Shown: piece by piece, positions 6,637 to 37,696 of the stretch
Layout: every line of letters begins with the position of its first letter
Numbering within the stretch: position 1 is the first letter of the stretch
Assembly: GCA_964244895.1 (NCBI GenBank)
Contig: CAXTKV010000025.1
Location: 1 to 37,755, forward strand
Length of the DNA: 37,755 bases
From: an uncultured Deinococcales bacterium
GTDB lineage: Bacteria; Deinococcota; Deinococci; Deinococcales; JAAFIG01
Direction: 5' to 3'
Made by a program: the position numbers and the translations under genes
Notes under the pieces: model-generated
Database searches by the model: none
Told to the model about the DNA's origin: nothing
The model's input: only the letters and a program-made list of their open reading frames with translations

Positions 6637-8844
6637 TTGAATCGGGCTTTTGAACGGGCGCTCGAGCAGTCCGCCGAAACCCGAGTCACCCGCACGACCT
6701 GCCCGTACTGCGCGGTGCAGTGCTCGTTCGACATCCTGCACGACGACCGCGCGCTCGAGATGCGAAGCACGCCGGATTGCCCGGTGGCGCACGGCAGCGT
6801 CTGCAAGAAGGGATTGAGCGCATTGGAGGTCGTCGATCACCCGGATCGTTTGACTGCGCCGCTGGTGCGCAGGAACGGCGCGCTGGAACCCGCATCCTGG
6901 GACGAGGCGCTGGATCGGGTCGTGAGTGGCATGATCGCCACGCGGGCCAGATACGGGCCGGATGCCTACGGCGTGTTCGGTGGCGGCAGCCTGACCAACG
7001 AAGTCGTGTACCTGCTCGCCAAGCTCGCGCGGGTCGGGTTGAAAACCGCCAACATCGATTACAACGGGCGTTTTTGCATGTCGAGCGCCGCCGCCGCCAC
7101 CCGCGAGGTCTACGGGCTGGATCGCGGCCTGCCGTTCCCGGTCGCGCAGCTCGAGCGCGCCCGGTGCATCGTGCTGTGGGGCGCGAACCTGGCGGAAACC
7201 CTGCCGCCCTTGGCGCAGTACATCACGCGCGCCCGCAAGAACGGCGCGGCGGTGATCGTGATCGATCCTCGGGCGGCGCGCACCAGCTTCCTGGCCACGC
7301 ACGTGCTGCAGGTGCAACCCGGCGGCGATCTGGCGCTGGCGCTGGCCATGCAGAACGCGATCTTCGAGGCCGGTCTGGAGCGCCGCGAGTTCCTCGAGAA
7401 CCGCACGCAGGGCTGGCGCGAGGTCGCGCAGAGTGTGGAACACTGCACGCCAGAATGGGCCGCCGAACGCACCGGACTGACGCCCGAAGCCATCCGCGAC
7501 ATCGCCCGCGTGATCGCCCGGCGCGGCCTCGAGGAGGGCGGCCCGATCCCGGAAGGCGTCGTGATCCTCTCCGGGCGCGGCCCGGAACAGCAGGCCCGAG
7601 GGGTGGACACGGTGCGCGCACTGATTCACCTGGCGCTGTCCGTGGGCGGCATTTACGCGCCGTTGACGGGTCAGGGCAACGGTCAGGGTGGCCGCGAGCA
7701 CGGTCAGAAAGCCGACCAACTGCCCGGCTACCGTTCTATCACCGACGCCCGCGATCGGCTCGAGATGGCGCGCGTCTGGGGCGTGGAACCCGAGGATTTG
7801 CCCGGCAAGGGACTGAGCGCCCAGGAGTTGCTGGAAGCCTGCGGCTCGGCTGTGCACGGTCTGCTGGTGCTGGGTTCCAACCCGGTCGTCAGCGCCGCGA
7901 ACGCCATCAACGTCACGCGCAGACTCGAGTCCCTGGATCACCTGGTGGTGATCGACTTTCTGCCCTCGGAGACCGCGCAACTGGCGGACGTGGTGCTGCC
8001 GGGCAGCATGTGGCTGGAATCGGACGGCACCATGACCAACCTGGAAGGCCGCGTGCTGCGCCGCCGCGAGGTCACCAACCCGCCAGCTCAGGCCCGGACG
8101 GACTGGCGGATTCTGTGCGATCTGGGCGCGCGGTTGGGCCACCCGGAAAAATTCGCGTTCTCGAACGTGGAATCCGTGTTCACCGAGTTCGCTCGAGCCA
8201 CCAGGGGCGCGCCCGCCGATTACAGCGGCATGACCTATAAAAAACTCGGCACAGAGGGCCTATTCTGGCCGTGCCCCGACCTGAAGCACCTGGGCATCGA
8301 TTACGAGGGCACGCCCGAACCCTTCAAGATCGGCTTTCACCACGCCGACGGTCGCGCGCACCTGCGGCCCATCGCGTACCGCGAATCACTCGAGGAACCC
8401 GACCTGAACTACCCAGTGCGTCTGACCACCGGGCGTCACGCCGACCAGTACCAGAGCGGCGTGCAAACGCGCCGCGTGGCGTCCTTGACGCGCAAGGCCA
8501 GCCGCGCCGAGGCGCAACTGCACCCGAAGCTGGCCGCCCAGTACGGGCTCGAGGAGGATTCGAGCGTCACCCTGGAGACGCGCCGGGGACGCGCCACCTT
8601 CGCCGTCTCGTTGAACGCTCGCATCCGAGAGGACACCATTTTCGTGCCGTTCCACTGGCCCGGCGCGGGTCGCGCCAACGCGCTGACCAACGCCGCGCTC
8701 GATCCGGTGTCCAGGATGCCGGAATTCAAGGTCGCCGCCGTTAGGCTCGAGAAAACACCGTCCGGTACGCAACTTAACAGTGCCGTCCCGGACGGTGTTC
8801 TCGTACCCGAACCCGTTCTGGTCGGCGCAGTCAGCGCCGAATGA
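6637..8844 (+). CDS. nasA: Assimilatory nitrate reductase catalytic subunit (molybdopterin oxidoreductase, NasA/NarB)
   Basis: TCPYCAVQC...VCKKG Fe-S motif, NGRFCMSS, LTGQGNGQG, DPVSRMPEFK; exact start uncertain (6604 or 6637). Confidence 0.88.
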   Translation: MNRAFERALEQSAETRVTRTTCPYCAVQCSFDILHDDRALEMRSTPDCPVAHGSVCKKGLSALEVVDHPDRLTAPLVRRNGALEPASWDEALDRVVSGMIATRARYGPDAYGVFGGGSLTNEVVYLLAKLARVGLKTANIDYNGRFCMSSAAAATREVYGLDRGLPFPVAQLERARCIVLWGANLAETLPPLAQYITRARKNGAAVIVIDPRAARTSFLATHVLQVQPGGDLALALAMQNAIFEAGLERREFLENRTQGWREVAQSVEHCTPEWAAERTGLTPEAIRDIARVIARRGLEEGGPIPEGVVILSGRGPEQQARGVDTVRALIHLALSVGGIYAPLTGQGNGQGGREHGQKADQLPGYRSITDARDRLEMARVWGVEPEDLPGKGLSAQELLEACGSAVHGLLVLGSNPVVSAANAINVTRRLESLDHLVVIDFLPSETAQLADVVLPGSMWLESDGTMTNLEGRVLRRREVTNPPAQARTDWRILCDLGARLGHPEKFAFSNVESVFTEFARATRGAPADYSGMTYKKLGTEGLFWPCPDLKHLGIDYEGTPEPFKIGFHHADGRAHLRPIAYRESLEEPDLNYPVRLTTGRHADQYQSGVQTRRVASLTRKASRAEAQLHPKLAAQYGLEEDSSVTLETRRGRATFAVSLNARIREDTIFVPFHWPGAGRANALTNAALDPVSRMPEFKVAAVRLEKTPSGTQLNSAVPDGVLVPEPVLVGAVSAE
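8749..8802. repeat. Palindromic family A copy translated inside nasA C-terminus
   Basis: GAGAAAACACCGTCCGGTACG...CGTCCCGGACGGTGTTCTC encodes EKTPSGTQLNSAVPDGVL. Confidence 0.85.
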
Positions 8845-8894
8845 ATCGCCATGCCTCAATCGATCTCGAGCCACCGCTGAACCCGGAGGAACCC

Positions 8895-9038
8895 ATGGAC
8901 ACCACCGAATCACCCCGATCTGGAAACGCGATCCTGACCATCTCAAGCCTCGGGTTCACCCTACCGTTCGCGGCTATTCCGGCTTCGACCGCGATTCGCG
9001 GCACCGCGCGGACGGCAGCACAGTCGTTTCCGAACTGA
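8895..9038 (+). pseudogene. Possible NarK-type MFS nitrate transporter remnant (47 aa)
   Basis: Strong RBS GGAGGA; ILTISSLGFTLPFA resembles NarK TM1; ORF ends after 47 codons. Confidence 0.35.
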
Positions 9039-9069
9039 TCCAAGATCGCATCGAACTCGCAACGATGCG

Positions 9070-9118
9070 AAAAACGCCGTCGCGGACAGCATCCTTGAAA
9101 GACTGTCCGCGAAGGTGC
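9070..9118. repeat. Palindromic family A copy (degenerate)
   Basis: AAAACGCCGTCGCGGACAG...CTGTCCGCGAAGGTG. Confidence 0.6.
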
Positions 9119-9148
9119 GCTCGGAAGAACACATCCTGGGAGGGACGC

Positions 9149-10399
9149 ATGAAAAAGACGCACACCGCAAGCCCCGAGAAACCGATCTCGAGGCGCAACT
9201 TTTTGAAGACCGCCGCCGTCACGGGTGCAGCTTTCGCGCTGCCGAACATCTGGATTCAGGCCAGGGCCGCGGGCACGATCAAGCTCGGGTTCATCGCGCT
9301 GACGGATTCCGCCAGCCTGATCATGGCCAAGGAATTGGGGCTCTACAAGAAGTACGGCGTGGATGTCGAAGTCGTCAAGCAAGCCTCCTGGGCGGCCCTG
9401 CGCGACGGCGTGCTGAACGGTGACATTCAGGGCGCGCACTGCTTGTTCGGGATGCCCTTCAGCGTCTACACGGGCATCGGGGGTCAGGCGGGCAAGGAAA
9501 TGTACGTCGCCATGATCCTGAGCAACAACGGTCAGGCGATCACGCTCTCCAAGGCCGCGCTGGGCGTCGTCGGGCGCGATTACGCCAAGCTCAAACCCGC
9601 GCTCGAGAAACTCAGCCAGGATGGGAAGGACACGACCTTCGCCATGACCTTCCCCGGCGGCACGCACGACATGTGGTTGCGGTACTTTCTTTCCAACGCG
9701 GGCATCGACGCGAGCGTCACCGGCAAGCAGCGCATCATCACGATTCCGCCGCCGCAGATGGTCGCCAACATGAAGGTCGGCAACATGATCGGTTACAGCG
9801 TCGGTGAGCCCTGGAACGGCGTCGGGGTGGCGCAGGACGTGGGTTACACGACCATCGCCAGCCAGGAAATCTGGAAGCACCACCCGGAAAAAGCCCTGGT
9901 GGTCAACAAGGATTTCGCGGCCCGCAAGGATGAACTCAAAGCCGTGATGAAGGCCGTCCTGGAAGCTGCCGAGTGGATGGACAGCGTCCCCAACGTCCGC
10001 AAGGCCGCCGCCACCATCGGGCAGGCGCAGTACGTCAACGCCGCGCCCGAAATCATCGGCGCCAGGCTGGAGGGGCGCTACGACATGGGCAACGGCCTGG
10101 GCACCAAGCAATTCCTGGAAGACCGGATGCTCTACTACCGGGGCGGCAAGGTGTCCTACCCGCGCATGAGCCACGCGATCTGGTTCATGGCGCAGTACCA
10201 GCGGTTCGGCTACCTGAAGGCCGCGCCCGACTACAAGGCCATCGCCGACAAGCTGATCCTGACGGACGTGTACAAGGAAGTCGCCAAGGAGGTCGGCGCG
10301 CCGATCCCCGACGACGACATGAAGCCCTGGACGATGACGCTGGATAAAGCCAAGTTTGACCCCAACAACCCGGCGGCGTACCTCAAGGACGCGAAGTAA
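9149..10399 (+). CDS. nrtA: Nitrate ABC transporter substrate-binding protein (NrtA/CmpA family), Tat signal
   Basis: SRRNFLK Tat motif, LGFIALTDS, TFPGGTHD, PPPQMVANM, GEPWN, HPEK; ATG after GGAGG. Confidence 0.9.
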   Translation: MKKTHTASPEKPISRRNFLKTAAVTGAAFALPNIWIQARAAGTIKLGFIALTDSASLIMAKELGLYKKYGVDVEVVKQASWAALRDGVLNGDIQGAHCLFGMPFSVYTGIGGQAGKEMYVAMILSNNGQAITLSKAALGVVGRDYAKLKPALEKLSQDGKDTTFAMTFPGGTHDMWLRYFLSNAGIDASVTGKQRIITIPPPQMVANMKVGNMIGYSVGEPWNGVGVAQDVGYTTIASQEIWKHHPEKALVVNKDFAARKDELKAVMKAVLEAAEWMDSVPNVRKAAATIGQAQYVNAAPEIIGARLEGRYDMGNGLGTKQFLEDRMLYYRGGKVSYPRMSHAIWFMAQYQRFGYLKAAPDYKAIADKLILTDVYKEVAKEVGAPIPDDDMKPWTMTLDKAKFDPNNPAAYLKDAK

Positions 10400-18611: not shown

Positions 18612-18660
18612 GACACCGTCCAGGACGTGAATAATTGAATGCGTCCCGGACGGTGTTCTC
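18612..18660. repeat. Palindromic family A copy
   Basis: GACACCGTCCAGGACG...CGTCCCGGACGGTGTTCTC. Confidence 0.85.
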
Positions 18661-18740: not shown

Positions 18741-20198
18741 CTATCCCTCGTGCGCTTTCAACCACGCCAGGATCTGGTCGGATTGGTTCTCGAGTTCGCC
18801 GTCCACCACGGCTTGCGCGGCCAGCTTCTTCAAGCGACCCAGTTCCGGCCCCGGCTCGAGGCCAAACGCGAGCATGATCTCGCGCCCGGAAAGCGCCAGC
18901 GCGCGCTCGTCGAAGCTGGCGATGGCCGGACCGAAGGCCTCGCAGCGTTGACGGACGGTGCGCGCCCAGGTGCGCGGGTCGAAACCTTCCGGCAGAACGT
19001 GCGCGCTCAGATCGGCCTCGCGGCATTCCAAGGCCGCCATCCAGTCGTCCCCGAGGTCGTTCAGCCAGCGTCGCAGCACCTTGTCGCTGGACACCCTGGG
19101 CGGTCTCATGTGCTGGCGCACGATGCGGACGGTACTTTCCAGGGTTTGCGCCGGGAATTTCAGGCGCTCGAGGATCGCGCGCGCCAGGTGCGCACCCTCG
19201 ACCTCGTGACCGTAGTAATGCGCGATTATCCCGGACGCGCCGGGAACGACCGGATGCTCAGACGCGCCAGGAACGACCGGATTCTTAGACGCGCCGGGAA
19301 CGACCGGCGCGATTCCATCATCACCGAAACTCTGCGTCATCGGTTTGCCGATGTCGTGCAGCAGCAGGGCCAGCCGCGCGTTTAACGCCGCGCCGCTCGA
19401 GACGGCGTAGCGCACGGCGTGAAAGACGTGTTCGTCCAGCGTGAACTGGTGGTGGGGGTTTTGTTGATCGAAACCGATGGATGCCCGAATTTCGGGCACG
19501 ATCCAGCCCAGCAACCCCGAATCCCGAAGGATTCGCAAAGCGCGGTGAACGCCATCCGCGTGCGAAGCCTCGAGCAGACCCAGCAGTTCCGTCTGCAGGC
19601 GCTCCGGCGCGACGGACGCAATCAGCTCGGCGCTGAGCGTCATCGCATCCAGGGTTTCCGGTGCGATCAAAAAGTCCAGCTTGGCCGCGAACCGCGCGGC
19701 GCGCAGCATCCGCAACGGGTCTTCCTTGAAACGCTCGTTGGCGTCACCGACCGCCCGCAGGACGCGATCTTCGAGATCGCGTCGCCCGCCGAAAGGATCG
19801 TGAATCGGGCCGTCCGGTAAGCGCTTTGCGATGGCGTTGACCGTGAAATCCCGGCGCGCCAGGTCAGCGTCTAAGGTCAGATGCGGGTCGTAGCTGACCT
19901 CGAAATCCCTGTGCCCGACGCCCGTGCTGCGCTCCGTGCGCGGCAGGGCCACGTCGATCGTGGCCTCCTGGCTCGAGACTTTCAGCACGCCGAAGCTCGC
20001 GCCGACCGCGTCCACGCGCGCGAAGGCGCTCAGACCTCCGACCAGCTCCTCGAGACCGATCCCCGTCACGAGCACGTCCGTGTCCTTGACCGGAAAGCCC
20101 AGCAGCCCGTCCCGCACGCCGCCGCCGACCAGGTACGCGACGCCACCGCGCTCAGTCACGGCGCGGACGATTTCCTCGAGGAGTTCGGCTTCATTCAT
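18741..20198 (-). CDS. cca: Class II tRNA nucleotidyltransferase with HD domain
   Basis: VGGGVRD..LG...DTD, RTE flexible loop, DLARRDFTVNA, EDPLRMLRAARF, HH..T..EH, HDIGKP. Confidence 0.9.
   Translation of the reverse strand: MNEAELLEEIVRAVTERGGVAYLVGGGVRDGLLGFPVKDTDVLVTGIGLEELVGGLSAFARVDAVGASFGVLKVSSQEATIDVALPRTERSTGVGHRDFEVSYDPHLTLDADLARRDFTVNAIAKRLPDGPIHDPFGGRRDLEDRVLRAVGDANERFKEDPLRMLRAARFAAKLDFLIAPETLDAMTLSAELIASVAPERLQTELLGLLEASHADGVHRALRILRDSGLLGWIVPEIRASIGFDQQNPHHQFTLDEHVFHAVRYAVSSGAALNARLALLLHDIGKPMTQSFGDDGIAPVVPGASKNPVVPGASEHPVVPGASGIIAHYYGHEVEGAHLARAILERLKFPAQTLESTVRIVRQHMRPPRVSSDKVLRRWLNDLGDDWMAALECREADLSAHVLPEGFDPRTWARTVRQRCEAFGPAIASFDERALALSGREIMLAFGLEPGPELGRLKKLAAQAVVDGELENQSDQILAWLKAHEG
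19220..19314. repeat. In-frame 87-bp insertion: three 27-bp-period units flanked by 8-bp direct repeat
   Basis: GACGCGCCRGGAACGACCGG at 19234, 19261, 19288; GCGCGATT at 19220-19227 and 19307-19314; encodes 3x PVVPGAS. Confidence 0.95.
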
Positions 20199-20227
20199 GG
20201 TGCGCCCTTCAGGATACAGGCGAGAAC

Positions 20228-20280
20228 GAGAACACCGCGCAGGACGCGAACTCGAGAATACTGTCCACTACGGTGTTCTC
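20228..20280. repeat. Palindromic family A copy
   Basis: GAGAACACCGCGCAGGACG...CTGTCCACTACGGTGTTCTC. Confidence 0.8.
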
Positions 20281-20284
20281 AGGG

Positions 20285-21253
20285 TTATTCGTACAGGGAA
20301 AGCAGGAAGGCATCGGCGTACTCGCGCTCGGGTTTTTCGGGCAGGACGCTGAGGGCTTCGGCGGCGCGGGCGGCGGCCAGCTTTTCGTCCAGCAACTCGA
20401 CCAGCCTCTCGTAGCCGTACACGCCCAGCTTCGTATCGCGCATCACGGCGGCGAACACGGGTTCGTGGGGGTAGGTCACGCGGCCCGTCAGATGCAACTG
20501 CCGGATCTCTTCGAGGACGCGCAGGCTGTGGCTGAAGGCTTTGAAGTCCACGCCCGCGTCCATCGCGGCCCGCGAGCGCTTGCCGTAACCGCGCTCGAGT
20601 TCGCGCAACGGCTCGAGCGCCCACGAGGCGCGCGCCGAGAAATCGAAGGCTTTTTCCAGGATCACCAGTTGCCGCTGGCTCGCGTCGCTGATGCGTTCAA
20701 AAGCCAGCCGATGATCCGCGATGTCCAGCAGGATCGTGGGTGCGACATCCCTGATCAGCCCGTCCGTGGCACGTTCCAGGTGATCTATGGCCACCCGGAC
20801 GGCGCGCAAATGTTTGCCCCGGTCGGTGTAGCGCACCGCTTGCGCGTAGGCGAAACCCATCATGCCCGAGAGCTGCCGCGAGAGCAGCCGCGTCGCGTCC
20901 AGATCGCGCAAGCGCGCCTCGAAAGCCGCGTCCGTGCCGTCCAGCACGGCGCTCGGGTTGGTGTGGCTGAACAATAGTGACACCGCGTTGATGTCGCCGC
21001 GCAGCACCAGCTTCAGCCAGAACTGCAGGCTCCAGACGGTCACGTCCACGTCGTCGCTCGAGTTTTTCAGGCCGCTGCCGGAGTTGTTCGTGTTGCGCGT
21101 GAACTGCTGCGGTGCGGTCTGCAAGTACAGCGATTCGCGCGAGGGCAAGAATATGCCCTTGATGTCGAGGTCGCTGTTCGGCGTGGCCGTGCCGAACAGC
21201 TGAGAGCCCGACCTGGCCAGGTACAGGAGTTTGTGCGGGTTGACATCGATCAT
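20285..21253 (-). CDS. Pol-beta superfamily nucleotidyltransferase (RlaP-like)
   Basis: SGSQLFGTATPNSDLDIKGIFLP, third acidic DVD, C-terminal DFKAFSHSLRV and LPEKP motifs. Confidence 0.8.
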   Translation of the reverse strand: MIDVNPHKLLYLARSGSQLFGTATPNSDLDIKGIFLPSRESLYLQTAPQQFTRNTNNSGSGLKNSSDDVDVTVWSLQFWLKLVLRGDINAVSLLFSHTNPSAVLDGTDAAFEARLRDLDATRLLSRQLSGMMGFAYAQAVRYTDRGKHLRAVRVAIDHLERATDGLIRDVAPTILLDIADHRLAFERISDASQRQLVILEKAFDFSARASWALEPLRELERGYGKRSRAAMDAGVDFKAFSHSLRVLEEIRQLHLTGRVTYPHEPVFAAVMRDTKLGVYGYERLVELLDEKLAAARAAEALSVLPEKPEREYADAFLLSLYE

Positions 21254-21544
21254 GAATCACCATTTTCTCTCCGGAACGCGCGAATACGCGTGCGGAACGC
21301 ATACCTGGGCCAATCGAGTGTGCCACACGGTGCGCGCCCCACAAAACGCGTTCTGGCCTAGGCTGTTCGCGCGGATTGCGCGATTATTTCATCCTGGACG
21401 GTACTCTCGAGAAGAGGACACTCGCCGCTCGAGGCTGAATGCCCCGGACGGGACAGAAAATAACGCTCGGGGTGGCGAATAGAACTGATTCGTTTAAAAC
21501 AGAACGTGTGTTAAAATGTGGCTCAAAACAAAAGGAGGTCGTTC

Positions 21545-21946
21545 ATGGCTCAAATCAAGGAAGCGAATCCCTGGCCGAAAGGCATCTTTGCCATCACCCT
21601 GTTCGTCGAAGACCTGGAAGCCGCGAAGCAGTTCTACAAAGAGGTTTTCGGCCTACCAGTAGAATTCGAGGACGATCACTCGAGCGTCTTCAACTTCAAG
21701 AACACCCTGATCAACTTACTGAAAACCACGGCGGTCAACGAACTGATCGAACCTGCGACGATGGCCAGCCGCGAAGCTGGATCGCGGATGGTCTTCACCA
21801 TCAAGGTTGACGACGTTGACGCGATGTGCGCGGAATTGACCGGGCGCGGGCTGGTGCTGCTGAACGGCCCGATGGATCGGCCCTGGGGTATTCGCACGGC
21901 CAGTTTCAAGGATCCTGCCGGTCACATCTGGGAGATCGCAACGTAG
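21545..21946 (+). CDS. VOC/glyoxalase family protein
   Basis: ITLFVEDLEAAKQFY, VDDVDA, PWGIRTASFKDPAGHIWEI; AAGGAGG RBS. Confidence 0.9.
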   Translation: MAQIKEANPWPKGIFAITLFVEDLEAAKQFYKEVFGLPVEFEDDHSSVFNFKNTLINLLKTTAVNELIEPATMASREAGSRMVFTIKVDDVDAMCAELTGRGLVLLNGPMDRPWGIRTASFKDPAGHIWEIAT

Positions 21947-22008
21947 ACCAGGCTGCACCCCAGAATTGGCCCGTGTCACATTTGAGGCTCGAGCCTAGAA
22001 TCCATGGT

Positions 22009-22680
22009 GTGACCGATATTGACTGGGCCGCGCTGCGCGAACAACAGCGCCAGATTGCGCTGAAGGCCGTCTACACCGGCTCGCTCGAGGGCGTGCGACG
22101 CTTCGCGGCGGTGGACATGTCCTCGCAATCCTTCTACGGCGGCGAGAACGCCGCGATGTACGCGGCGGCGGTCGTGCTGGAACGCGGCTCAAAGACGCCG
22201 CTCGAGGTCGCGACCGCCAGCATGATCCCGGAAGTGCCGTACAAGACGGGCTTCCTGGCCTTCCGAGAGGCTCCAGTGATCTCGAAGGCGCTCGAGCAAC
22301 TGCGTTCCAGTTTCGATCTCGTCTGGGTGGACGGTCACGGCCTGATGCACCCGCGCCGAGCCGGGATCGCCACGCAACTGGGCGTGCTGCTGGGCAAGCC
22401 CAGCCTGGGAGTCGGCAAGACGCCATTGCACGGCGAACACGCCGCGCTCGAGGACGCTGCGGGCTCCCGCCAGCCCGTCACGGCTCGAGGCGAAGACCTG
22501 GGTTTCGCGGTCAGGTTGCGGGATCGGGTCAAACCCATTTTTGTCTCGCCGGGGCACCTGTGCGATCCGGACGCCGCGCTCGGCTTCGTGCTGGAACACG
22601 CCGATGGGTACAGGCTGCCGTGGCCTTCTCGGGTCGCACACGAACAGGCCAACATTTTCCGGCGCGAGAGCGAAGACTGA
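22009..22680 (+). CDS. nfi: Endonuclease V
   Basis: AVD.S, PY.TGFLAFRE, VDGHG..HPRRAGIA, GVGK, KPIFVSPG; leaderless GTG 7 nt after TAGAAT. Confidence 0.92.
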   Translation: MTDIDWAALREQQRQIALKAVYTGSLEGVRRFAAVDMSSQSFYGGENAAMYAAAVVLERGSKTPLEVATASMIPEVPYKTGFLAFREAPVISKALEQLRSSFDLVWVDGHGLMHPRRAGIATQLGVLLGKPSLGVGKTPLHGEHAALEDAAGSRQPVTARGEDLGFAVRLRDRVKPIFVSPGHLCDPDAALGFVLEHADGYRLPWPSRVAHEQANIFRRESED

Positions 22681-22808
22681 ATCGCGAGCCTGCGAATCCC
22701 CGAAATCGTCCTTTTGGGCGCAATACTTCACGTTTCTTCTCAAACTGGAGTCCGTTCGAGGTGATTTTTCCACTGCGAATTTCCTTATACCCGAGTATCC
22801 TCGAAAGC

Positions 22809-23261
22809 GTGATTGATTACGGCCTGTTGAGCATCGGGAACCAGCCGGACGGCGTGATCGCCGTGCGCGCCTTCCTGACCCCGGACGAGTTCCAGGAAGT
22901 CTCTTACGAATCCGTTCAGGATGACAACGCCGCCATCCGGCGGGCGCTTCGCACCTTCTGCGACACGCGCCAGTTGCCGCTCGTGCTGACCGTGGGCGGT
23001 TCCAACGTCGGCGTGCGCGAACGCGTGCCAGAGATCACGGCGGAACTCTTAGAGCGCCCAATCCCCGGACTGGCCGAACTGATGCGCCTGGCCGGGATTC
23101 AGAAAGCCCGAGTCAACGCCCTCTGGCGCGGTCTGGCCGGGCAACGCGGCAGGTCGATCATCATCAACTTGCCCGCCCACGACACCACGACCGCCGTTCA
23201 GGCCGTGCTGCCGCTCCTGCCGGTCGTGCTCGAGGCGATCCGTATCGAAGTGCCCGCTTGA
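22809..23261 (+). CDS. MogA/MoaB-like molybdopterin-binding protein
   Basis: V.DD, LVLTVGG..VG.RE..PE.T, IPGLAELMR, IINLP; leaderless GTG 7 nt after TATCCT. Confidence 0.75.
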   Translation: MIDYGLLSIGNQPDGVIAVRAFLTPDEFQEVSYESVQDDNAAIRRALRTFCDTRQLPLVLTVGGSNVGVRERVPEITAELLERPIPGLAELMRLAGIQKARVNALWRGLAGQRGRSIIINLPAHDTTTAVQAVLPLLPVVLEAIRIEVPA

Positions 23262-23321
23262 ACACACCGTCCGGTACGCCGTTTTTGTACCTTCAAGAAC
23301 ACCGTCCTGGACGGTGTTCTT
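23262..23321. repeat. Palindromic family A copy (perfect core), possible terminator between convergent genes
   Basis: AAGAACACCGTCC-T-GGACGGTGTTCTT at 23295-23321 followed by a T-run. Confidence 0.9.
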
Positions 23322-23335
23322 TTTTGGCTCGAGCC

Positions 23336-24163
23336 TTAGCGCTTCTGGCAATTCGGACAAAAATGCGTGCCGCGTTGCGCCAGAAAGTATTTTTCTATTG
23401 GCGTCCCGCAGCGGCTGCAGGCTTCACCCGCCCGGTCGTAGACGGCGTGCTCGAGCTGAAAATACCCCGGTTCGCCGCGCGGTTGCTGATAGGAATTGTC
23501 CGACAGCGTGCTGCCGCCGGCCTGAAGCGCGCGGGTCATGACCTCGCGGATCGCACCGTGCAGACGCCCGGATTGGGCGCGCGTCAGATGGCCCGCCTCT
23601 GGGTGAATTTTCGCGTGCCAGAGCGCTTCGTCCGCGTAAATGTTGCCCACGCCCGCCACGGGTTTCTGCGATAAGAGCGCAGGTTTGACCCGACTGACCC
23701 TCTTCATGGCCGCCGCGAACGGGGCCAGCTTGAACTCCTCCGACAACGGTTCCGGCCCCATCGCCGCCAGCGTCCCGATGTGACCCCAGGCGTCCCGTGG
23801 CACGACCTCCCAGAAGCCGAAGCGTCTGGAATCCACGTAAGACACCTCGCCGCGATCCGTCTCGAGGCGCAGACGCTCGAAACGCGGCGCGTCCTGAAAC
23901 CGCCCCGAAGCGTCCGGGAAGCGGAAGCCGCCCGTCATTTTCAGGTGCACGATCACATCGAGCGGTTCAGCGGCGCTGTCGTCGTCCAGTCTGAAAATCA
24001 GGTACTTGCCGCGCCGTTCCAACCGATCCACGCGCCGCCCGATGGCCGAAAGCGTGTTGCGGTAACGCTCTGGGTCAGCGTGGTGAATCGCGGTGATGGT
24101 GCGCCCCAACAGCGCGGGTTCCAGGGCGCGACGGGTGGTTTCGACCTCCGGCAGTTCGGGCAT
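23336..24163 (-). CDS. mutM: Formamidopyrimidine-DNA glycosylase
   Basis: MPELPEVET, RRGKY, GVGNIYADE, C-terminal zinc finger CSRC...CPNCQ. Confidence 0.95.
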   Translation of the reverse strand: MPELPEVETTRRALEPALLGRTITAIHHADPERYRNTLSAIGRRVDRLERRGKYLIFRLDDDSAAEPLDVIVHLKMTGGFRFPDASGRFQDAPRFERLRLETDRGEVSYVDSRRFGFWEVVPRDAWGHIGTLAAMGPEPLSEEFKLAPFAAAMKRVSRVKPALLSQKPVAGVGNIYADEALWHAKIHPEAGHLTRAQSGRLHGAIREVMTRALQAGGSTLSDNSYQQPRGEPGYFQLEHAVYDRAGEACSRCGTPIEKYFLAQRGTHFCPNCQKR

Positions 24164-24221
24164 GGCCTGGAGTGTACGCTCGGGGCTGAAGCTCGAGAAG
24201 GGCGCAGGTCACGAGGCGCAG

Positions 24222-24244
24222 AAATACCGTGCTGGACGGTGTTT
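24222..24244. repeat. Palindromic family A single core overlapping the hisA stop
   Basis: AAATACCGTGCTGGACGGTGTTT. Confidence 0.8.
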
Positions 24245-24944
24245 AGCCTTCAGGAAACACCAGCGTGCCCTCGTAGAGCGCCCGACCGACGATCGCGCCC
24301 TCGATGCCCAAATCTTCGAGCAATTCCAGATCTTGAGCGTCGCGCACGCCGCCACCCGCCGCCAACCGACCCGGCCACGCGGCCCGCATGGCTTCCAGCG
24401 GCGCTCTGTCCAGCCCCTCGAGCGTCCCATCCCGGCTGACATCCGTATAAATCAAGGATTTCACGCCCTGCGCCCAGACGCGCGCCGCCAGTTCGGTCGC
24501 GCGAACGCGGCTCGCCTCGAGCCAACCCTTGACGGCCACCAGACCGTCCCTGGCGTCCACGCTGACCACGACCGCGCCCGCGCCGAAATCCGTCAGCAGC
24601 GCCGCCACCAATTCCGGGTTCGTGACCGCCGCCGTGCCGATCACGACCTGCGCCGCGCCACCCTCGAGCAGAATTCTGGCGGCTTCCAGGCTGCGGATGC
24701 CGCCGCCGACCTCGATGGGCACGGACAGTTCCTTTGCAATCTTGAGGATGATGTCGCGGTTCTCGCCCGCGCCCGTGGCGGCGTCCAGATCCACCAGGTG
24801 AACCAGCCCCGCGCCCAGCCCCGCCCAGTGCTGCGCGGCTTCCAGGGGATGTTCGAAGTAGACTGTCTCGAGTTTCGGATCGCCCTTGAACAACCGGACG
24901 GCGCGACCGCGTTGAATGTCCACGCACGGGATGACCTCGACCAC
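24243..24944 (-). CDS. hisA: ProFAR isomerase
   Basis: [42 protein letters not shown]. Confidence 0.95.
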
Positions 24945-24999
24945 GCGCAGAGATTACCAGAGATCGCGGATTCCTAAGGCCTGAACGTATGATTCGAGC

Positions 25000-25383
25000 G
25001 TGTTCCGCGTTTCGGTGCGTCGGTGGCTGCTGCGGGCCGTGCTGGTCGCGGTCGGCGCGGTCGTATTGACTGTTTTGACCGCACTCGTGCCGCGCCCGAT
25101 CTACCCGACGGACGGTGCGCAAATCGTGCGGTTCGGCTACCCGTTGCCGTTCATCGCGCAGGACGTTTCAGGCGTTCGGGTGAGCACCTACCCCGCCTGG
25201 GTCGGCCTCGAGCCTTCACGCGGGCTGGAATTGGCGTGGCGCACGGTCGCGGTGGATGTCGCGTTCTACGCGGTGGCGTTCGCGCTCGGCGGCGTGATGG
25301 TGCGCGCCGCCAACCGGGATCGGACGCGGCGCATCATGCAGCGCGACGTGCGCCTGGGACGCGACCCGAACTGGCGCGATTGA
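25000..25383 (+). CDS. Hypothetical membrane protein
   Basis: Two hydrophobic segments, FGYPLPF motif; leaderless GTG 6 nt after TATGAT. Confidence 0.65.
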   Translation: MFRVSVRRWLLRAVLVAVGAVVLTVLTALVPRPIYPTDGAQIVRFGYPLPFIAQDVSGVRVSTYPAWVGLEPSRGLELAWRTVAVDVAFYAVAFALGGVMVRAANRDRTRRIMQRDVRLGRDPNWRD

Positions 25384-25390
25384 AGCTCGG

Positions 25391-25440
25391 GAAGACCGTC
25401 CAGGACACGAACTCGAGAACGCGTCCTGGACGGTGTTCTC
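25391..25440. repeat. Palindromic family A copy
   Basis: GAAGACCGTCCAGGACACG...CGCGTCCTGGACGGTGTTCTC. Confidence 0.85.
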
Positions 25441-25445
25441 TCAAC

Positions 25446-26390
25446 TTACAGGATGCGTTTGCCCAACAAGCTCGCGGCCATCTCGACCATGATCCGCGCG
25501 GTGGCGTTGCGGTTGTCCAGCACGGGGTTGACCTCGACCAGATCGAGGCTGCCGACCTTGGCGGAATCCGCCAGAATTTCCATCAACAAATGCGCCTCGC
25601 GGTAACTCAGACCGCCGGGAACGGGCGTGCCGACGCCCGGAGCGATGCTCGGATCGAGCGAGTCCGCATCGAAAGACACGTGAATTCGGCTGACGCCGGA
25701 CAGCTTCTCGAGCGCATCGTGTGCGACCCGCGCCAGCCCGAGCGTGTCGATCTCTTTCATGGTGAAAATGCTCGCACCTCGGGCTTTCAGAAGCTCCCGC
25801 TCGGCGTGATCGACGCTGCGAATACCGATCATCACGATGTCTTCGGGCCTGATTTTTGCGCCCACCCCGCCGATGTTGACCAGCCGTTCGTCGCCCAGCC
25901 CGACCAGGTGCGCCACGGGCATGCCGTGAATGTTGCCGGACGGCGAGATTTCTGGCGTGTTGAAATCCGTGTGCGCGTCCACCCACACCAGCCCGATGCG
26001 CTCGCTCGGTTCATCTGCGCGCCGGGAACGACCGGGCTCATCTGCGCGCCGGGAACGACCGGCGCGACGCGCCACTCCAGCCACAGTGCCCATGCTCATC
26101 GAGTGATCTCCACCGATGCAGATTGGAAACATGTCACTCGGCAGTTGCGATAGCCGCTCTGCGGTTTCCTGGCACGCTTGAAGGATTTCTTCGAGGTAAC
26201 GCGGGTCGTTCGATGACCGATCGATGGCTTCCACCACGGGCACGTCGACGTTACCGTGATCCGTCACCTGGTGGCCCAGGGCGTGCAGGGTTTCCGCGAG
26301 TTGCGCGTACCGAATCGCGCTCGGCCCCATGTCCACGCCGCGCCGACCCGCCCCCAAATCCATTGGAATGCCCAGAATGCCAACCTTCAT
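25446..26390 (-). CDS. rocF: Arginase
   Basis: RRGVDMGP, GGDHS, DAHTDFN, SGNIHGMP, SFDADSLDP, EVNP. Confidence 0.93.
   Translation of the reverse strand: MKVGILGIPMDLGAGRRGVDMGPSAIRYAQLAETLHALGHQVTDHGNVDVPVVEAIDRSSNDPRYLEEILQACQETAERLSQLPSDMFPICIGGDHSMSMGTVAGVARRAGRSRRADEPGRSRRADEPSERIGLVWVDAHTDFNTPEISPSGNIHGMPVAHLVGLGDERLVNIGGVGAKIRPEDIVMIGIRSVDHAERELLKARGASIFTMKEIDTLGLARVAHDALEKLSGVSRIHVSFDADSLDPSIAPGVGTPVPGGLSYREAHLLMEILADSAKVGSLDLVEVNPVLDNRNATARIMVEMAASLLGKRIL
26011..26066. repeat. In-frame insertion: two 27-bp-period units sharing the cca repeat core
   Basis: CGCGCCGGGAACGACCGG at 26018 and 26045; encodes 2x GRSRRADEP. Confidence 0.95.
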
Positions 26391-28583: not shown

Positions 28584-29533
28584 TCCAGCAACTCCCGGAG
28601 CGTCACGAACGCGTAGCCTCTGGCTTTGAGCGTCTCGAGAATTCGGGGCAGGGCGTCCTGCGTGGCGGGGACTTTCGGGCCGCCGTGGGAGTGCAGCACG
28701 ATGATCGAGCCGTCGCGGACGTGACCCAGGACGTTGTTGACGATCACGTCGGCGTCGCGTTGCCCGCCGTCTCCGCCGACCACGTCCCAGTCCACGACGC
28801 TCAACCCGAGCGCGTGCGCGTCGTCCAGGTCTATTTGGGAGTAGCACCCGCCGGGAAAACGGAAGAAGCGGTTGGGTTTGTGCGTGATGCCCTCCAGGAG
28901 GGTTTTGGTTTTGAGCATCTCGTCGCGTTCCCCGCCGCGCTTGATGCTGAGCAGGCCGTAGCACGCGCCGAAGAACGACGGATGCGAATACGAGTGGTTC
29001 TCGAGCTCAAAGAGGGGGTTGTCGGCGAGCGCTCGGGTTTCTTCGGGGTAAAGTTCAATCCACAATCCGGTCAAAAAGAACGTGGCTTTGACCTGCTCTC
29101 GTTCCAGGATCGCGTAGATGTTGGTGTTGTCGTAAGAGGCCACACGGTGCGTTTGCAGGGCGTGTCTCATGCCGTAGGTCATGTCCGCATCGAAGGTCAA
29201 TGCGATGCGTTTTCGGTCGCGCGGCCCGTGGCCGATCAGTCCGGGCATCTGCGGGTCTTTTGAATTCGTCCACGGGTTCAGCGCTGGCGGGTTCAGCGCT
29301 GGCGGTTTGAGCGTCGGTGCGACCGTGCGCGCTGGGGACGTTAGGGTGGTTGCGGTTCGAGCCTGAACGCTCCGGTTCGGTGGCGCGGTGCGTGCGCTCG
29401 GGCTGGTGCAGGCGGTTGCGCTGATGATCAGCAGTGCGCTCAGGGCGATGGCTCGAGCCTGTGCGCCTGGAACACCGTCCAGCACGCAATTCAGTAAACC
29501 TCGCGCTGGACGGTAGTCCCGAGGTGGCGACAT
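28580..29533 (-). CDS. Polysaccharide deacetylase (NodB/CE4), probable lipoprotein
   Basis: IALTFD, ATFFLTG, ENHSYSH, FRFPGG, GSIIVLH; lipobox ATAC; start uncertain; 15-bp repeat (PPALN) at 29273-29313. Confidence 0.85.
   Translation of the reverse strand: MSPPRDYRPARGLLNCVLDGVPGAQARAIALSALLIISATACTSPSARTAPPNRSVQARTATTLTSPARTVAPTLKPPALNPPALNPWTNSKDPQMPGLIGHGPRDRKRIALTFDADMTYGMRHALQTHRVASYDNTNIYAILEREQVKATFFLTGLWIELYPEETRALADNPLFELENHSYSHPSFFGACYGLLSIKRGGERDEMLKTKTLLEGITHKPNRFFRFPGGCYSQIDLDDAHALGLSVVDWDVVGGDGGQRDADVIVNNVLGHVRDGSIIVLHSHGGPKVPATQDALPRILETLKARGYAFVTLRELLE
29470..29516. repeat. Palindromic family A copy in the predicted deacetylase N-terminus
   Basis: GAACACCGTCCAGCACG...CGCGCTGGACGGTAG. 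Confidence 0.8.
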
Positions 29534-32355: not shown

Positions 32356-33588
32356 CTAGCGATAGACGCCCGTGTGCCCCAGCGAATACCGTCCGGGTTG
32401 CGGGAAGTACGACAGTCCGTGCGGGCCGCGTCCGACCTTGATGCGCCGCAGGAACGCGCCCTTGACGGTGTCGAAGACGTAAACCTCGTCGCTGTAGCGC
32501 GCGGAAAGCCACAGTTGCGTGCCGTCCGCGCTGACGCTGCCCATGTCGGGGCTGCCGCCGCCCGGAATGACCCATTTGGCGATCACGGTGCGCGTGGCGA
32601 AGTCCAGCACGCTGACCGTGCCTTCGCCCCGGTTCGAGATGTAGAGGTCTTTGGCGTCGCGGCTCGGGTAGATGCCGTGCGCGCCCTTGCCAGTCGGGAT
32701 GAAACCGATTTTCTCGAGCGTTTCGCCATCGATCAGGTACAGGCCGTTCGCCATCATGTCAGCCACGTAGAACACGCTGCCATCCGGCGAGAGTTTCACG
32801 TCCTGCGGCATGCCACCGACGTGAAGCTGCCCGATGACCTCGCGCTTTTCCACGTCGATCTTGAGAATCTCGCCGCTGAACTCGCAGGCGGCGATCAGGT
32901 AACGCCCGTCGGCGCTGAAATCCATGTGGTTGATGCCCTTGCACGGCACGCGCAGGCTGAAGTCTTTTTGCATGGTCTGCGGGTTCATGAAATCCAGCCG
33001 ACGCTGGTATTCGGCCACCACGATGGCGTACTGACCGTCCGGTGTGAAGTACAAATTGTAGGGGTCTTGCACTTTGACGGGTGCGCCGGGCGCGCTGGTG
33101 GCGGGATTGATCGGAATCAGGGTGTGGCCTTTGTCATCCGCGACCCACAGCGTCTTCAGATCCCACGATGGCACGACGTGCTGCGGTTCGTCCTGCACGG
33201 GGAAGGTGCTGATGACCTCGAAAGTTGCGGGGTCGATCACGCTGACCGTATCGGATTTGCCGTTGGGTACGTAGACGCGCGCTGGGATGTCCTTGACGGC
33301 GGGCGCGAGCATGCCTTTTTGCGTGAAGGCGTAAATGTTTTTCGGGTCGTAGGCGGGCATTCCGGGCAAGCCCTCGACCAGTTTCGTGCCGTCGGGTGCG
33401 GTCAGGTCAATCGTATTCGAGATGGCTGGTTTCGGAGTCGCCGGGCTCGAGGCGGTCAAGCTCGAGGCGGTCGGGCTCGAGGCGGTCGAGGTCGTGTTGA
33501 CCGGGTCGGATCGTCTGGCTTGCATGGCCGCCAATGCACCCACCGCGACGACCGCAACGACGGCGAGCATCACCAGAAATCGGTTCAA
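32356..33588 (-). CDS. Secreted YVTN/YncE-type beta-propeller protein
   Basis: Signal peptide; repeated VYV.N..S.TVSVID blades; 15-bp x3 repeat (TASS) at 33445-33487. Confidence 0.85.
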   Translation of the reverse strand: MNRFLVMLAVVAVVAVGALAAMQARRSDPVNTTSTASSPTASSLTASSPATPKPAISNTIDLTAPDGTKLVEGLPGMPAYDPKNIYAFTQKGMLAPAVKDIPARVYVPNGKSDTVSVIDPATFEVISTFPVQDEPQHVVPSWDLKTLWVADDKGHTLIPINPATSAPGAPVKVQDPYNLYFTPDGQYAIVVAEYQRRLDFMNPQTMQKDFSLRVPCKGINHMDFSADGRYLIAACEFSGEILKIDVEKREVIGQLHVGGMPQDVKLSPDGSVFYVADMMANGLYLIDGETLEKIGFIPTGKGAHGIYPSRDAKDLYISNRGEGTVSVLDFATRTVIAKWVIPGGGSPDMGSVSADGTQLWLSARYSDEVYVFDTVKGAFLRRIKVGRGPHGLSYFPQPGRYSLGHTGVYR

Positions 33589-34233: not shown

Positions 34234-34284
34234 GAGAACACCGTCCGGGACGCATGATAAAATACGCGTCCTGGACGGTGTTTT
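34234..34284. repeat. Palindromic family A copy
   Basis: GAGAACACCGTCCGGGACGC...GCGTCCTGGACGGTGTTTT. Confidence 0.88.
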
Positions 34285-37633: not shown

Positions 37634-37696
37634 GAGAACACCGTCCAGGACGGTCTTTTTTGCGAATCCAGGAACGGCGTGCTGGACGGTGTTCTT
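37634..37696. repeat. Palindromic family A, two cores
   Basis: GAGAACACCGTCCAGGACGGTCTT and GAACGGCGTGCTGGACGGTGTTC. Confidence 0.88.

Follow-up and report, generated by a model that had tools for sequence, protein, structure and literature searches.

A dispersed GAACGA hairpin inserted in frame in cca, arginase and other genes of an uncultured Deinococcales bacterium

Tiny palindromic inserts that lie in frame within genes are, as a phenomenon, already known. Elhai et al. are said to have described, in 2008 (Genome Res 18:1484), the small dispersed repeats SDR1-8 of the Nostocaceae, which are reportedly ~21-27 nt long, carry compensatory stem changes and occur as filled and empty alleles. 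We know of no enzyme for these repeats or for the CGTC class of repetitive extragenic palindromes (REPs), and to our knowledge how repeats of 20-30 nt spread is an open question. Here we investigate a hairpin element with a GAACGA loop that forms arrays in the cca and arginase genes of an uncultured Deinococcales bacterium. The window, by which we mean the whole stretch of DNA analysed, is 37,755 nt long and constitutes contig C25 (CAXTKV010000025.1) of a 91% complete, 5.12 Mb metagenome-assembled genome (MAG) in 328 contigs (GCA_964244895.1, here G000 or the source genome); the named homologues of its proteins belong to Deinococcota. The element is dispersed through this genome, conserves its stem structure, inserts into genes while preserving their frame, and changes in copy number. 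It acts like a mobile DNA, and one among the smallest. It has compensatory stem changes and filled and empty alleles among relatives, two features that the Nostocaceae repeats reportedly also have, and by analogy it appears to work like the Nostoc small dispersed repeats and short intragenic REPs. The first-pass annotation of this DNA had not recognised the hairpin as a described family, and indeed no paper naming the GAACGA hairpin family was found in the literature searched, but the kind of element to which it would belong has been described.

SDR5 is a 21-nt module inserted precisely in the highly iterated palindrome HIP1, and the available portions of the sources report no SDR repeats outside the Nostocaceae among HIP1-rich genomes (PMC5861425, PMC4390886, PMC13756078). 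Compared by description with those portions, our element is likewise small, dispersed, without a known enzyme and confined to a lineage, and it is tied to the highly iterated palindrome of its genome (HIP1 there, CTCGAG in G000). In contrast, its host phylum is Deinococcota rather than the Nostocaceae, its units measure 24-36 nt and carry variable tails, unlike SDR5 as presented there, and a minority of its loci, including the arginase site, lie at CTCGAG. The CGTC REPs, including RPE-4 and RPE-6 (PMC3733652), resemble the element in coupling a short tagged hairpin to a 3' tail, in their in-frame intragenic copies and in having no transposase; on the minus strand, the arginase copy has CGTC before the stem and GCA after it, while elsewhere the bases after the plus-strand stem vary. 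However, the definition given in the accessible part of that source requires a loop of 4-5 nt, a stem of 8-9 bp starting AT, a CCA tail and a CGTC, TGTC or CCTC tag, whereas the element has a 6-nt loop, a stem that ends Y-R then G-C with no AT pairs at its foot, and a variable tag. The same part describes CGTC REPs as mostly head-to-head dimers that rarely cluster, whereas our element forms head-to-tail arrays at 10 of 21 loci; Deinococcus is nowhere mentioned in the main text of that source.

The GTAG REPs and REPINs that accompany the REP-associated tyrosine transposase (RAYT), as characterized in the available sections of PMC8266576 and PMC3116915, share with the element a GT-starting tetranucleotide before the palindrome, a RAYT-like gene in the genome and tandem clusters. 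Unlike them, the element lacks GTAG and inverted doublets, is unlinked to the RAYT-like gene, and has a large intragenic share. The first-pass annotation had likened the element to the Rickettsia palindromic elements while calling it far shorter. RPE-1 to 3, in the portions of PMC10969869 and PMC3184786 that cover them, also insert in frame in unrelated housekeeping genes at tolerated loops, but they span ~105-150 bp and encode a conserved peptide, whereas the element consists of 24-36 nt units, uses three frames and expands in tandem. The element therefore fails the definitions of CGTC REPs, GTAG REPs and long RPEs alike.

The two arrays in the window

The 18-mer on which the first-pass annotation was built occurs in the window at 19236, 19263 (one mismatch), 19290, 26018 and 26045, and these are the sole matches at ≤3 mismatches (n = 5); at the same threshold, 100 shuffles of the window averaged 0.30 matches, with no more than 2 in any of them. 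Both arrays have a period of 27 by Tandem Repeats Finder (TRF). The mismatch search and TRF thus confirm the earlier count of five copies at a 27-bp period in both arrays, which are laid out as follows.

18741..20198, minus strand: cca gene, encoding a 485-aa CCA-adding tRNA nucleotidyltransferase with HD domain and carrying the three-copy array
19228..19314: cca in-frame insertion, 87 nt (33+27+27), whose exact position can shift within an 8-nt direct repeat
19220-19227 and 19307-19314: the 8-nt direct repeat bounding the cca insertion
19236..19253, plus strand: cca hairpin unit copy 1, outer right arm missing
19263..19280, plus strand: cca hairpin unit copy 2, one mismatch
19290..19312, plus strand: complete 8-bp cca hairpin, GAACGA loop, then A; its outer right arm is native Ile-Ala codons
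25446..26390, minus strand: arginase gene, encoding 314 aa and carrying the two-copy array
26008..26067: arginase net in-frame insertion, ~60 nt (33+27), ends uncertain by 1-2 nt
26018..26035, plus strand: arginase hairpin unit copy 1, outer right arm missing
26045..26068, plus strand: complete 8-bp arginase hairpin, GAACGA loop, then AC (the family consensus end)

In each array, an 8-bp hairpin (fold ~ -12 kcal/mol) is completed by the last copy on the plus strand and has an A directly after it, as the first-pass annotation had noted. The 18-mer reads PVVPGA in cca and GRSRR in arginase, with both arrays in frame, and since three reading frames are used in genes, the earlier view that conservation lies at the DNA level is upheld. 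The annotation's division of the unit into 18 constant bp and a 9-bp linker had to be given up, as the net inserts are 33+27+27 and 33+27 nt here and the periods at other loci are 27-33. The model of the CCA enzyme is confident (mean predicted local distance difference test score, pLDDT, 88) except at residues 93-98 and 295-321, and the insert (residues 295-321) is predicted to be a disordered, low-confidence loop. The arginase insert lies between a helix and a strand in the predicted model, and an empty arginase homologue aligns gap-free at the insert site to a solved arginase.

A dispersed hairpin family with covarying arms

A genome-wide search found 12 exact copies of the 18-mer, rising to 29 when up to 2 mismatches were allowed. 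What stays constant is a core of 12 nt, CGG-GAACGA-CCG, which matches exactly 37 times, compared to 7 for the reversed control. The five outer stem pairs differ among loci yet remain complementary (for example, CGCGC/GCGCG, TGTGA/TCACA, TACGA/TCGTA, TGAGC/GCTCA and TGCGG/CCGCA). We counted 24 hairpins in which at least 7 of the 8 pairs form, where 59 permuted loops averaged 0.17. Together with their tandem neighbours, these hairpins amount to 37 copies at 21 loci, a set that differs from the 37 exact core matches. We tested covariation on 23 terminal copies picked by the 12-nt core alone, with arms swapped between loci as the control: 92 of 115 outer stem positions were paired (60.3 ± 4.7 in the control), and 0 of 100,000 shuffles reached 92. 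Among the 17 distinct arm types, 64 of 85 outer positions were paired vs 39.9 in shuffles. A few loop or closing-pair variants of the hairpin exist in G000, and the plus-strand stem is followed by A at 18 of 21 loci and then by C at 15. The unit combines a conserved hairpin of 22-24 nt, whose arms covary, with a variable tail. A core match on C38 was dropped because a relative has the same residues and no insert, and the unpaired core matches on C90 and C180 were treated as chance.

Eight of the 21 loci lie inside genes and 13 are intergenic, with the C75 locus, upstream of a glutamine synthetase-like start, counted as intergenic by judgement; mutS, where one arm is truncated, is a ninth coding case outside the 21. 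The first-pass annotation had seen no intergenic copy, which is true of the window, where all matches fall in the two arrays, but not of the genome. Direct tandem arrays with periods of 27-33 make up 10 of the 21 loci, and no inverted pairs occur. Stems closed by C-G were present at all coding loci (8/8) but at 1/13 intergenic loci (Fisher p 4e-5), and three intergenic copies closed by T-A provide the stop codon of a gene. Contig C151 carries 24 tRNA genes (8015-10200), and two of the element's loci are interspersed with them.

Outside the source genome, the exact 18-mer was absent from all relatives searched (0/40). In 301 genomes of the order, the structured pattern matched 13 times in G000, twice in a genome of the same family (G005), and once in each of four genomes, with none in 295; three core matches in G005 look like family members. 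A scan of GTDB genomes returned 23 scattered loci, 22 of them single, viral contigs returned 0 matches, and metagenomes returned 4 single matches, none of which looked family-like on inspection. Among the sequences searched, the element thus appears mostly confined to one genus-level lineage. The first-pass annotation had stated that its idea would fall if the genome held no further copies and distant orthologs carried the same peptides, and this is not the case.

The genome also contains an abundant intergenic palindrome family of the ACACCGTCC type (264 matches, 8 in genes), represented in the window at 639-684, 1720-1765, 8755-8799, 18613-18657, 23264-23318, 34238-34282, 37638-37693 and other positions. 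The two families may be related, as GAACGA variants at C2:19224 and C136:11780 resemble the ACACCGTCC type.

Filled, empty and multi-copy alleles

In all nine coding cases, the net insert length is a multiple of three (cca, 87 nt; arginase, 60; agmatine deiminase, 33; the SDR gene, 36; a PreP-like peptidase, 60; GNAT, ~60 in a variable loop; EF-G2, 30; oligopeptidase, 30; MutS, 24), where the names GNAT and PreP-like are our reading of the sequence. Seven inserts run one way (five read as PVVPGA, two as GRSxR) and two, in the PreP-like and mutS genes, are reversed (GTT frame); the shared orientation to transcription noted in the first pass therefore describes the cca and arginase arrays but not the family.

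Looking for empty sites in orthologs, a check that the first-pass annotation had suggested, revealed both empty sites and copy-number variants in close relatives. The cca insert is absent in 18/18 genomes of the taxonomic family and in 26/28 homologues readable by pattern (17 more were left out of this reading), while homologues 82% and 92% identical carry one unit where G000 carries three. The arginase site is empty in 16/17 genomes of the taxonomic family with an arginase match, and in 30/34 protein homologues, including the closest (96% identical). Relatives of the SDR gene (94% identical) and of the PreP-like gene (96%) are empty as well, the EF-G2 cluster is split between empty (7/11) and filled (4/11) members, and a relative of agmatine deiminase (91% identical) is filled. 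MutS has one truncated unit in G000 and ~four 30-nt units in a 97% relative. These empty and multi-copy alleles support the original proposal, namely a very small element whose insertions into coding sequence come in multiples of three and which expands locally. The possibility that the agmatine deiminase insert was copied from cca (31/33 nt alike on our reading) was weakened by the 91% relative, which has native residues upstream.

We also examined an independent run (X3) whose contigs are ~90-95% identical to G000. Its contig across cca carries a single hairpin (19252 joined to 19318 with 14 other letters), and its contig across arginase is insert-free, with CTCGAG at the break; runs X1 and X2 yielded no contig bridging the cca or arginase site. 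Because close relatives are empty or one-copy, the insertion into arginase and the growth of the cca array probably happened recently. The source is a 328-contig MAG and two of the loci touch a contig end or gap, which would leave room for chance matches or assembly artefacts, the latter also foreseen by the first-pass annotation as a way for its idea to fail. Given the shuffle controls, and given that inserts in cca, agmatine deiminase, EF-G2, MutS and arginase recur in the X3 contig, with its one cca copy, and in independent proteins, we consider this explanation practically negligible.

The arginase site has been filled more than one way. One homologue, 89% identical, is filled there by 11 residues of the same type, and three homologues at 73% have a different array. 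DNA for this 73% group comes from G002, a genome of another genus, whose arginase gene (L068) contains a different palindrome array (period 27, 72 nt net). This array begins at the very base where the window's insert begins, likewise with TCGCG, and its tail resembles that of protein P0195; this hairpin is not clearly a dispersed family, with 1 exact match. In G006, of the same genus as G002, the arginase is empty with CTCGAG. A third genus has another 33-nt in-frame arginase insert with a duplicated CGCTCGAG, at a different site, a second arginase CTCGAG. The in-frame inserts near arginase residue 60 (L069 and L074 in G015 and G013; proteins P0210, P0217 and P0224) comprise this 33-nt type in one genus and 8-residue tandem units in another group. 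When the EF-G2 tree was computed with the insert left out, filled alleles required 3 changes and formed one group in 0/200 bootstrap trees; the well-supported branches are compatible with a single origin, and the filled label is no more clustered than in shuffles. Repeated gain, precise loss and short-patch recombination are all possible sources of the EF-G2 and arginase patchiness.

This patchiness could instead reflect allele exchange, if the hairpin were a protein-binding DNA or RNA site selected by the host, spread by short-patch recombination or transformation and kept as useful. Such a role would fit a core that is nearly invariant while tails diverge, the three intergenic copies that supply a stop codon, the Asp-Gln-Gln tail shared by the filled arginase alleles of the 89% relative and the 73% G002 group, and filled EF-G2 alleles that are not one clade in the best tree. 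However, copies occur in both orientations and three frames in functionally unrelated genes, the closest relatives do without the arginase, SDR gene and PreP-like copies, the family is nearly confined to 1 of 301 genomes, and the EF-G2 tree is compatible with one origin. We therefore hold a host-selected site to be quite improbable; most likely, the element is selfish and nearly neutral.

Filled, empty, one-copy and multi-copy alleles form a natural series across relatives 82-97% identical in nine genes, including cca and mutS, and the element recurs at one base and is tied to a HIP-like hexamer outside cyanobacteria. The mechanism is therefore testable by comparing closed genomes. The element would also be a steady source of new protein loops.

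Junctions and candidate routes of spread

In cca, agmatine deiminase and the PreP-like gene, one of the two outer arms belongs to the native coding sequence, and the stretch on the opposite side of an insert often resembles the target adjoining the native arm. In a permutation test on 19 loci (2 more, at a contig end or gap, were left out), flanks were more similar to their own locus than to others (p < 5e-5 when the arm is included and 0.012 when it is not). An imperfect copy of the target was significant at the SDR gene (13/18 nt), GNAT (11/12), C21 (11/14), agmatine deiminase (10/15) and C33 (7/10). The core does not vary, but copying of the target is imperfect even where the insertion is recent. 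For the tails of 8 coding loci, a search at ≤3 mismatches turned up no donor bearing the hairpin, and its single flagged match is not an element, so that we rejected tails carried over from donor loci.

CTCGAG is the commonest hexamer of G000 (21,883 copies, 4.3 per kb; 146 in the window), many other palindromic hexamers are strongly avoided there, and we found no paper on CTCGAG hyper-abundance in Deinococcota in the literature searched. CTCGAG lies ≤15 nt from 8/21 loci vs 3.5 expected (P = 0.014), and orthologues of cca and agmatine deiminase have none at the insert site. Tandem repeats of 15 nt occur in the window at 33442-33488, where they are built around CTCGAG, and at 29273-29313.

We consider it probable, if narrowly so, that the element is a lineage-restricted non-coding hairpin of ~24 nt, inserted as 24-36 nt blocks at ≥21 loci, whose single-stranded copy is captured by host repair at an arm-like nick or gap. 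The folded hairpin would be the form that is recognised or stabilised, which would explain why pairing is kept while letters change. Capture could be guided by short homology to a TCGCG-like target or occur at the hyper-abundant CTCGAG, and gap filling would then re-copy ~10-18 nt of the adjacent target imperfectly, giving the variable tail. Inserts in genes that shift the frame or bear a stop would be purged, leaving in-frame ones in tolerant loops, and slippage between direct repeats could grow or shrink the arrays.

Several points weigh against this reading. Significance of the imperfect target copy was reached at only 5/19 loci, with p uncorrected and with the arm adding some built-in matching, and it was not reached at cca (p = 0.38), arginase (p = 0.84), EF-G2 or oligopeptidase. 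The CTCGAG enrichment is modest, and 13/21 loci are without the hexamer. Stem covariation could also arise by intra-strand correction of quasi-palindromes. Arginase provides the only DNA-level empty site from a close relative, and its predicted structure is of low confidence as a whole (mean pLDDT 66). We saw neither an intermediate nor a nicking enzyme or repair pathway, and the gene of a dedicated mobiliser might lie outside an assembly that is 91% complete.

A wider possibility is that CTCGAG-rich Deinococcales run an undescribed oligonucleotide-homing pathway, in which ~33-nt hairpin cassettes are captured in an error-prone manner, primed by nicks that lie at the palindrome or close to it, and the hairpin family is a parasite. 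The same nucleotide could then be hit repeatedly with different cargo, as two hairpin types at one arginase base and the 33-nt insert at the second arginase CTCGAG of a third genus would suggest, and precise loss would be possible. We regard this pathway as unlikely; if true, it would connect HIP-type palindromes, in a way that can be tested, with the so far unexplained mobility of SDR-sized elements.

We next consider a dedicated enzyme. Family searches of G000 gave no hits to Pfam Y1_Tnp, RVT_1 or IS110, and a motif scan found nothing; these were the enzyme classes searched. The Y1_Tnp result is a miss, because tblastn with proteins of relatives located an intact RAYT-like gene at C12:40664-41187 (L245), whose product matches NF047646 below the cut-off of 80 (E 4e-14, 52.6 bits). 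This gene has a GTAG-type hairpin inside its own reading frame and another upstream, and the GAACGA hairpin is not there; the search for a HUH/RAYT or reverse transcriptase gene flanked by the motif, as proposed in the first pass, thus came up empty in G000. GTAG REPs number 72 genome-wide (one at window 12357), and none is intragenic (0/72), compared to 8/264 for the ACACCGTCC-type palindromes and 16/37 core matches, ~five of them doubtful. Judged by eye, the neighbours of 15 intergenic element sites look like ordinary genes.

These data bear on the possibility that a Y1 HUH enzyme, the RAYT-like protein or a lost relative, mobilises the element in trans as an atypical REP, with a GTYR tetranucleotide on the minus strand as tag and guide and a variable cut distance producing the variable tails. 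The intact RAYT-like reading frame speaks for such a route, as does a minus-strand hairpin that starts GT at most loci (AC follows the plus-strand stem in 14/23 terminal copies). TnpAREP cuts 5' or 3' of a REP and shifts its cut site when the tag is altered, according to the available part of PMC8266576, and extending this rule to a GTCG tag would predict C^G, consistent with the arginase break. However, the EF-G2 junction misfits C^G, and CG is too common to discriminate. Moreover, the RAYT-like gene keeps company with GTAG hairpins, which stay out of genes, and the element's tag is never GTAG; its copies form direct tandems and never inverted pairs; no GAACGA hairpin occurs in 20 loci around the Y1 genes of relatives; and the tails lack donors, as described above. 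We judge this route rather unlikely.

Cas1 is present in G000 and in 14/18 relatives, the local CRISPR repeat begins GT and forms a stem with a 6-nt loop, and inserts of 30-36 nt resemble spacers in size, so that one might take the units for degenerate CRISPR repeats or for short pieces that Cas1-Cas2 inserted off-target. When we compared nine CRISPR repeats from cas1 loci of the family with hairpin-preserving shuffles, however, eight were no more similar than expected (p 0.23-0.91), and one, a partial repeat, gave p 0.04 over 8 nt. There is no repeat-length target duplication, the sequences between copies are not foreign spacers, and Rfam returned nothing credible at five intergenic loci. A CRISPR origin is accordingly very improbable. 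The cas1 gene lies with a 37-nt-repeat CRISPR array at C36:29330-32119, and short arrays of other repeats are found at C102:15886 and C161:4851.

We return to tandem expansion, which in the captured-hairpin reading would proceed by slippage. G000 contains ≥290 tandem arrays of period 21-40, and expansion is therefore not special to the hairpin element. Among the matches listed, a dispersed 39-nt intergenic tandem-repeat family was also observed, with 2-3 copies per locus, at the following positions.

39-nt family loci, first part: G000 C8:9182, C21:25571, C29:31944, C47:2466, C51:5000, C127:340
39-nt family loci, second part: G000 C162:3, C174:2207, C229:3974, C241:842, C243:4243

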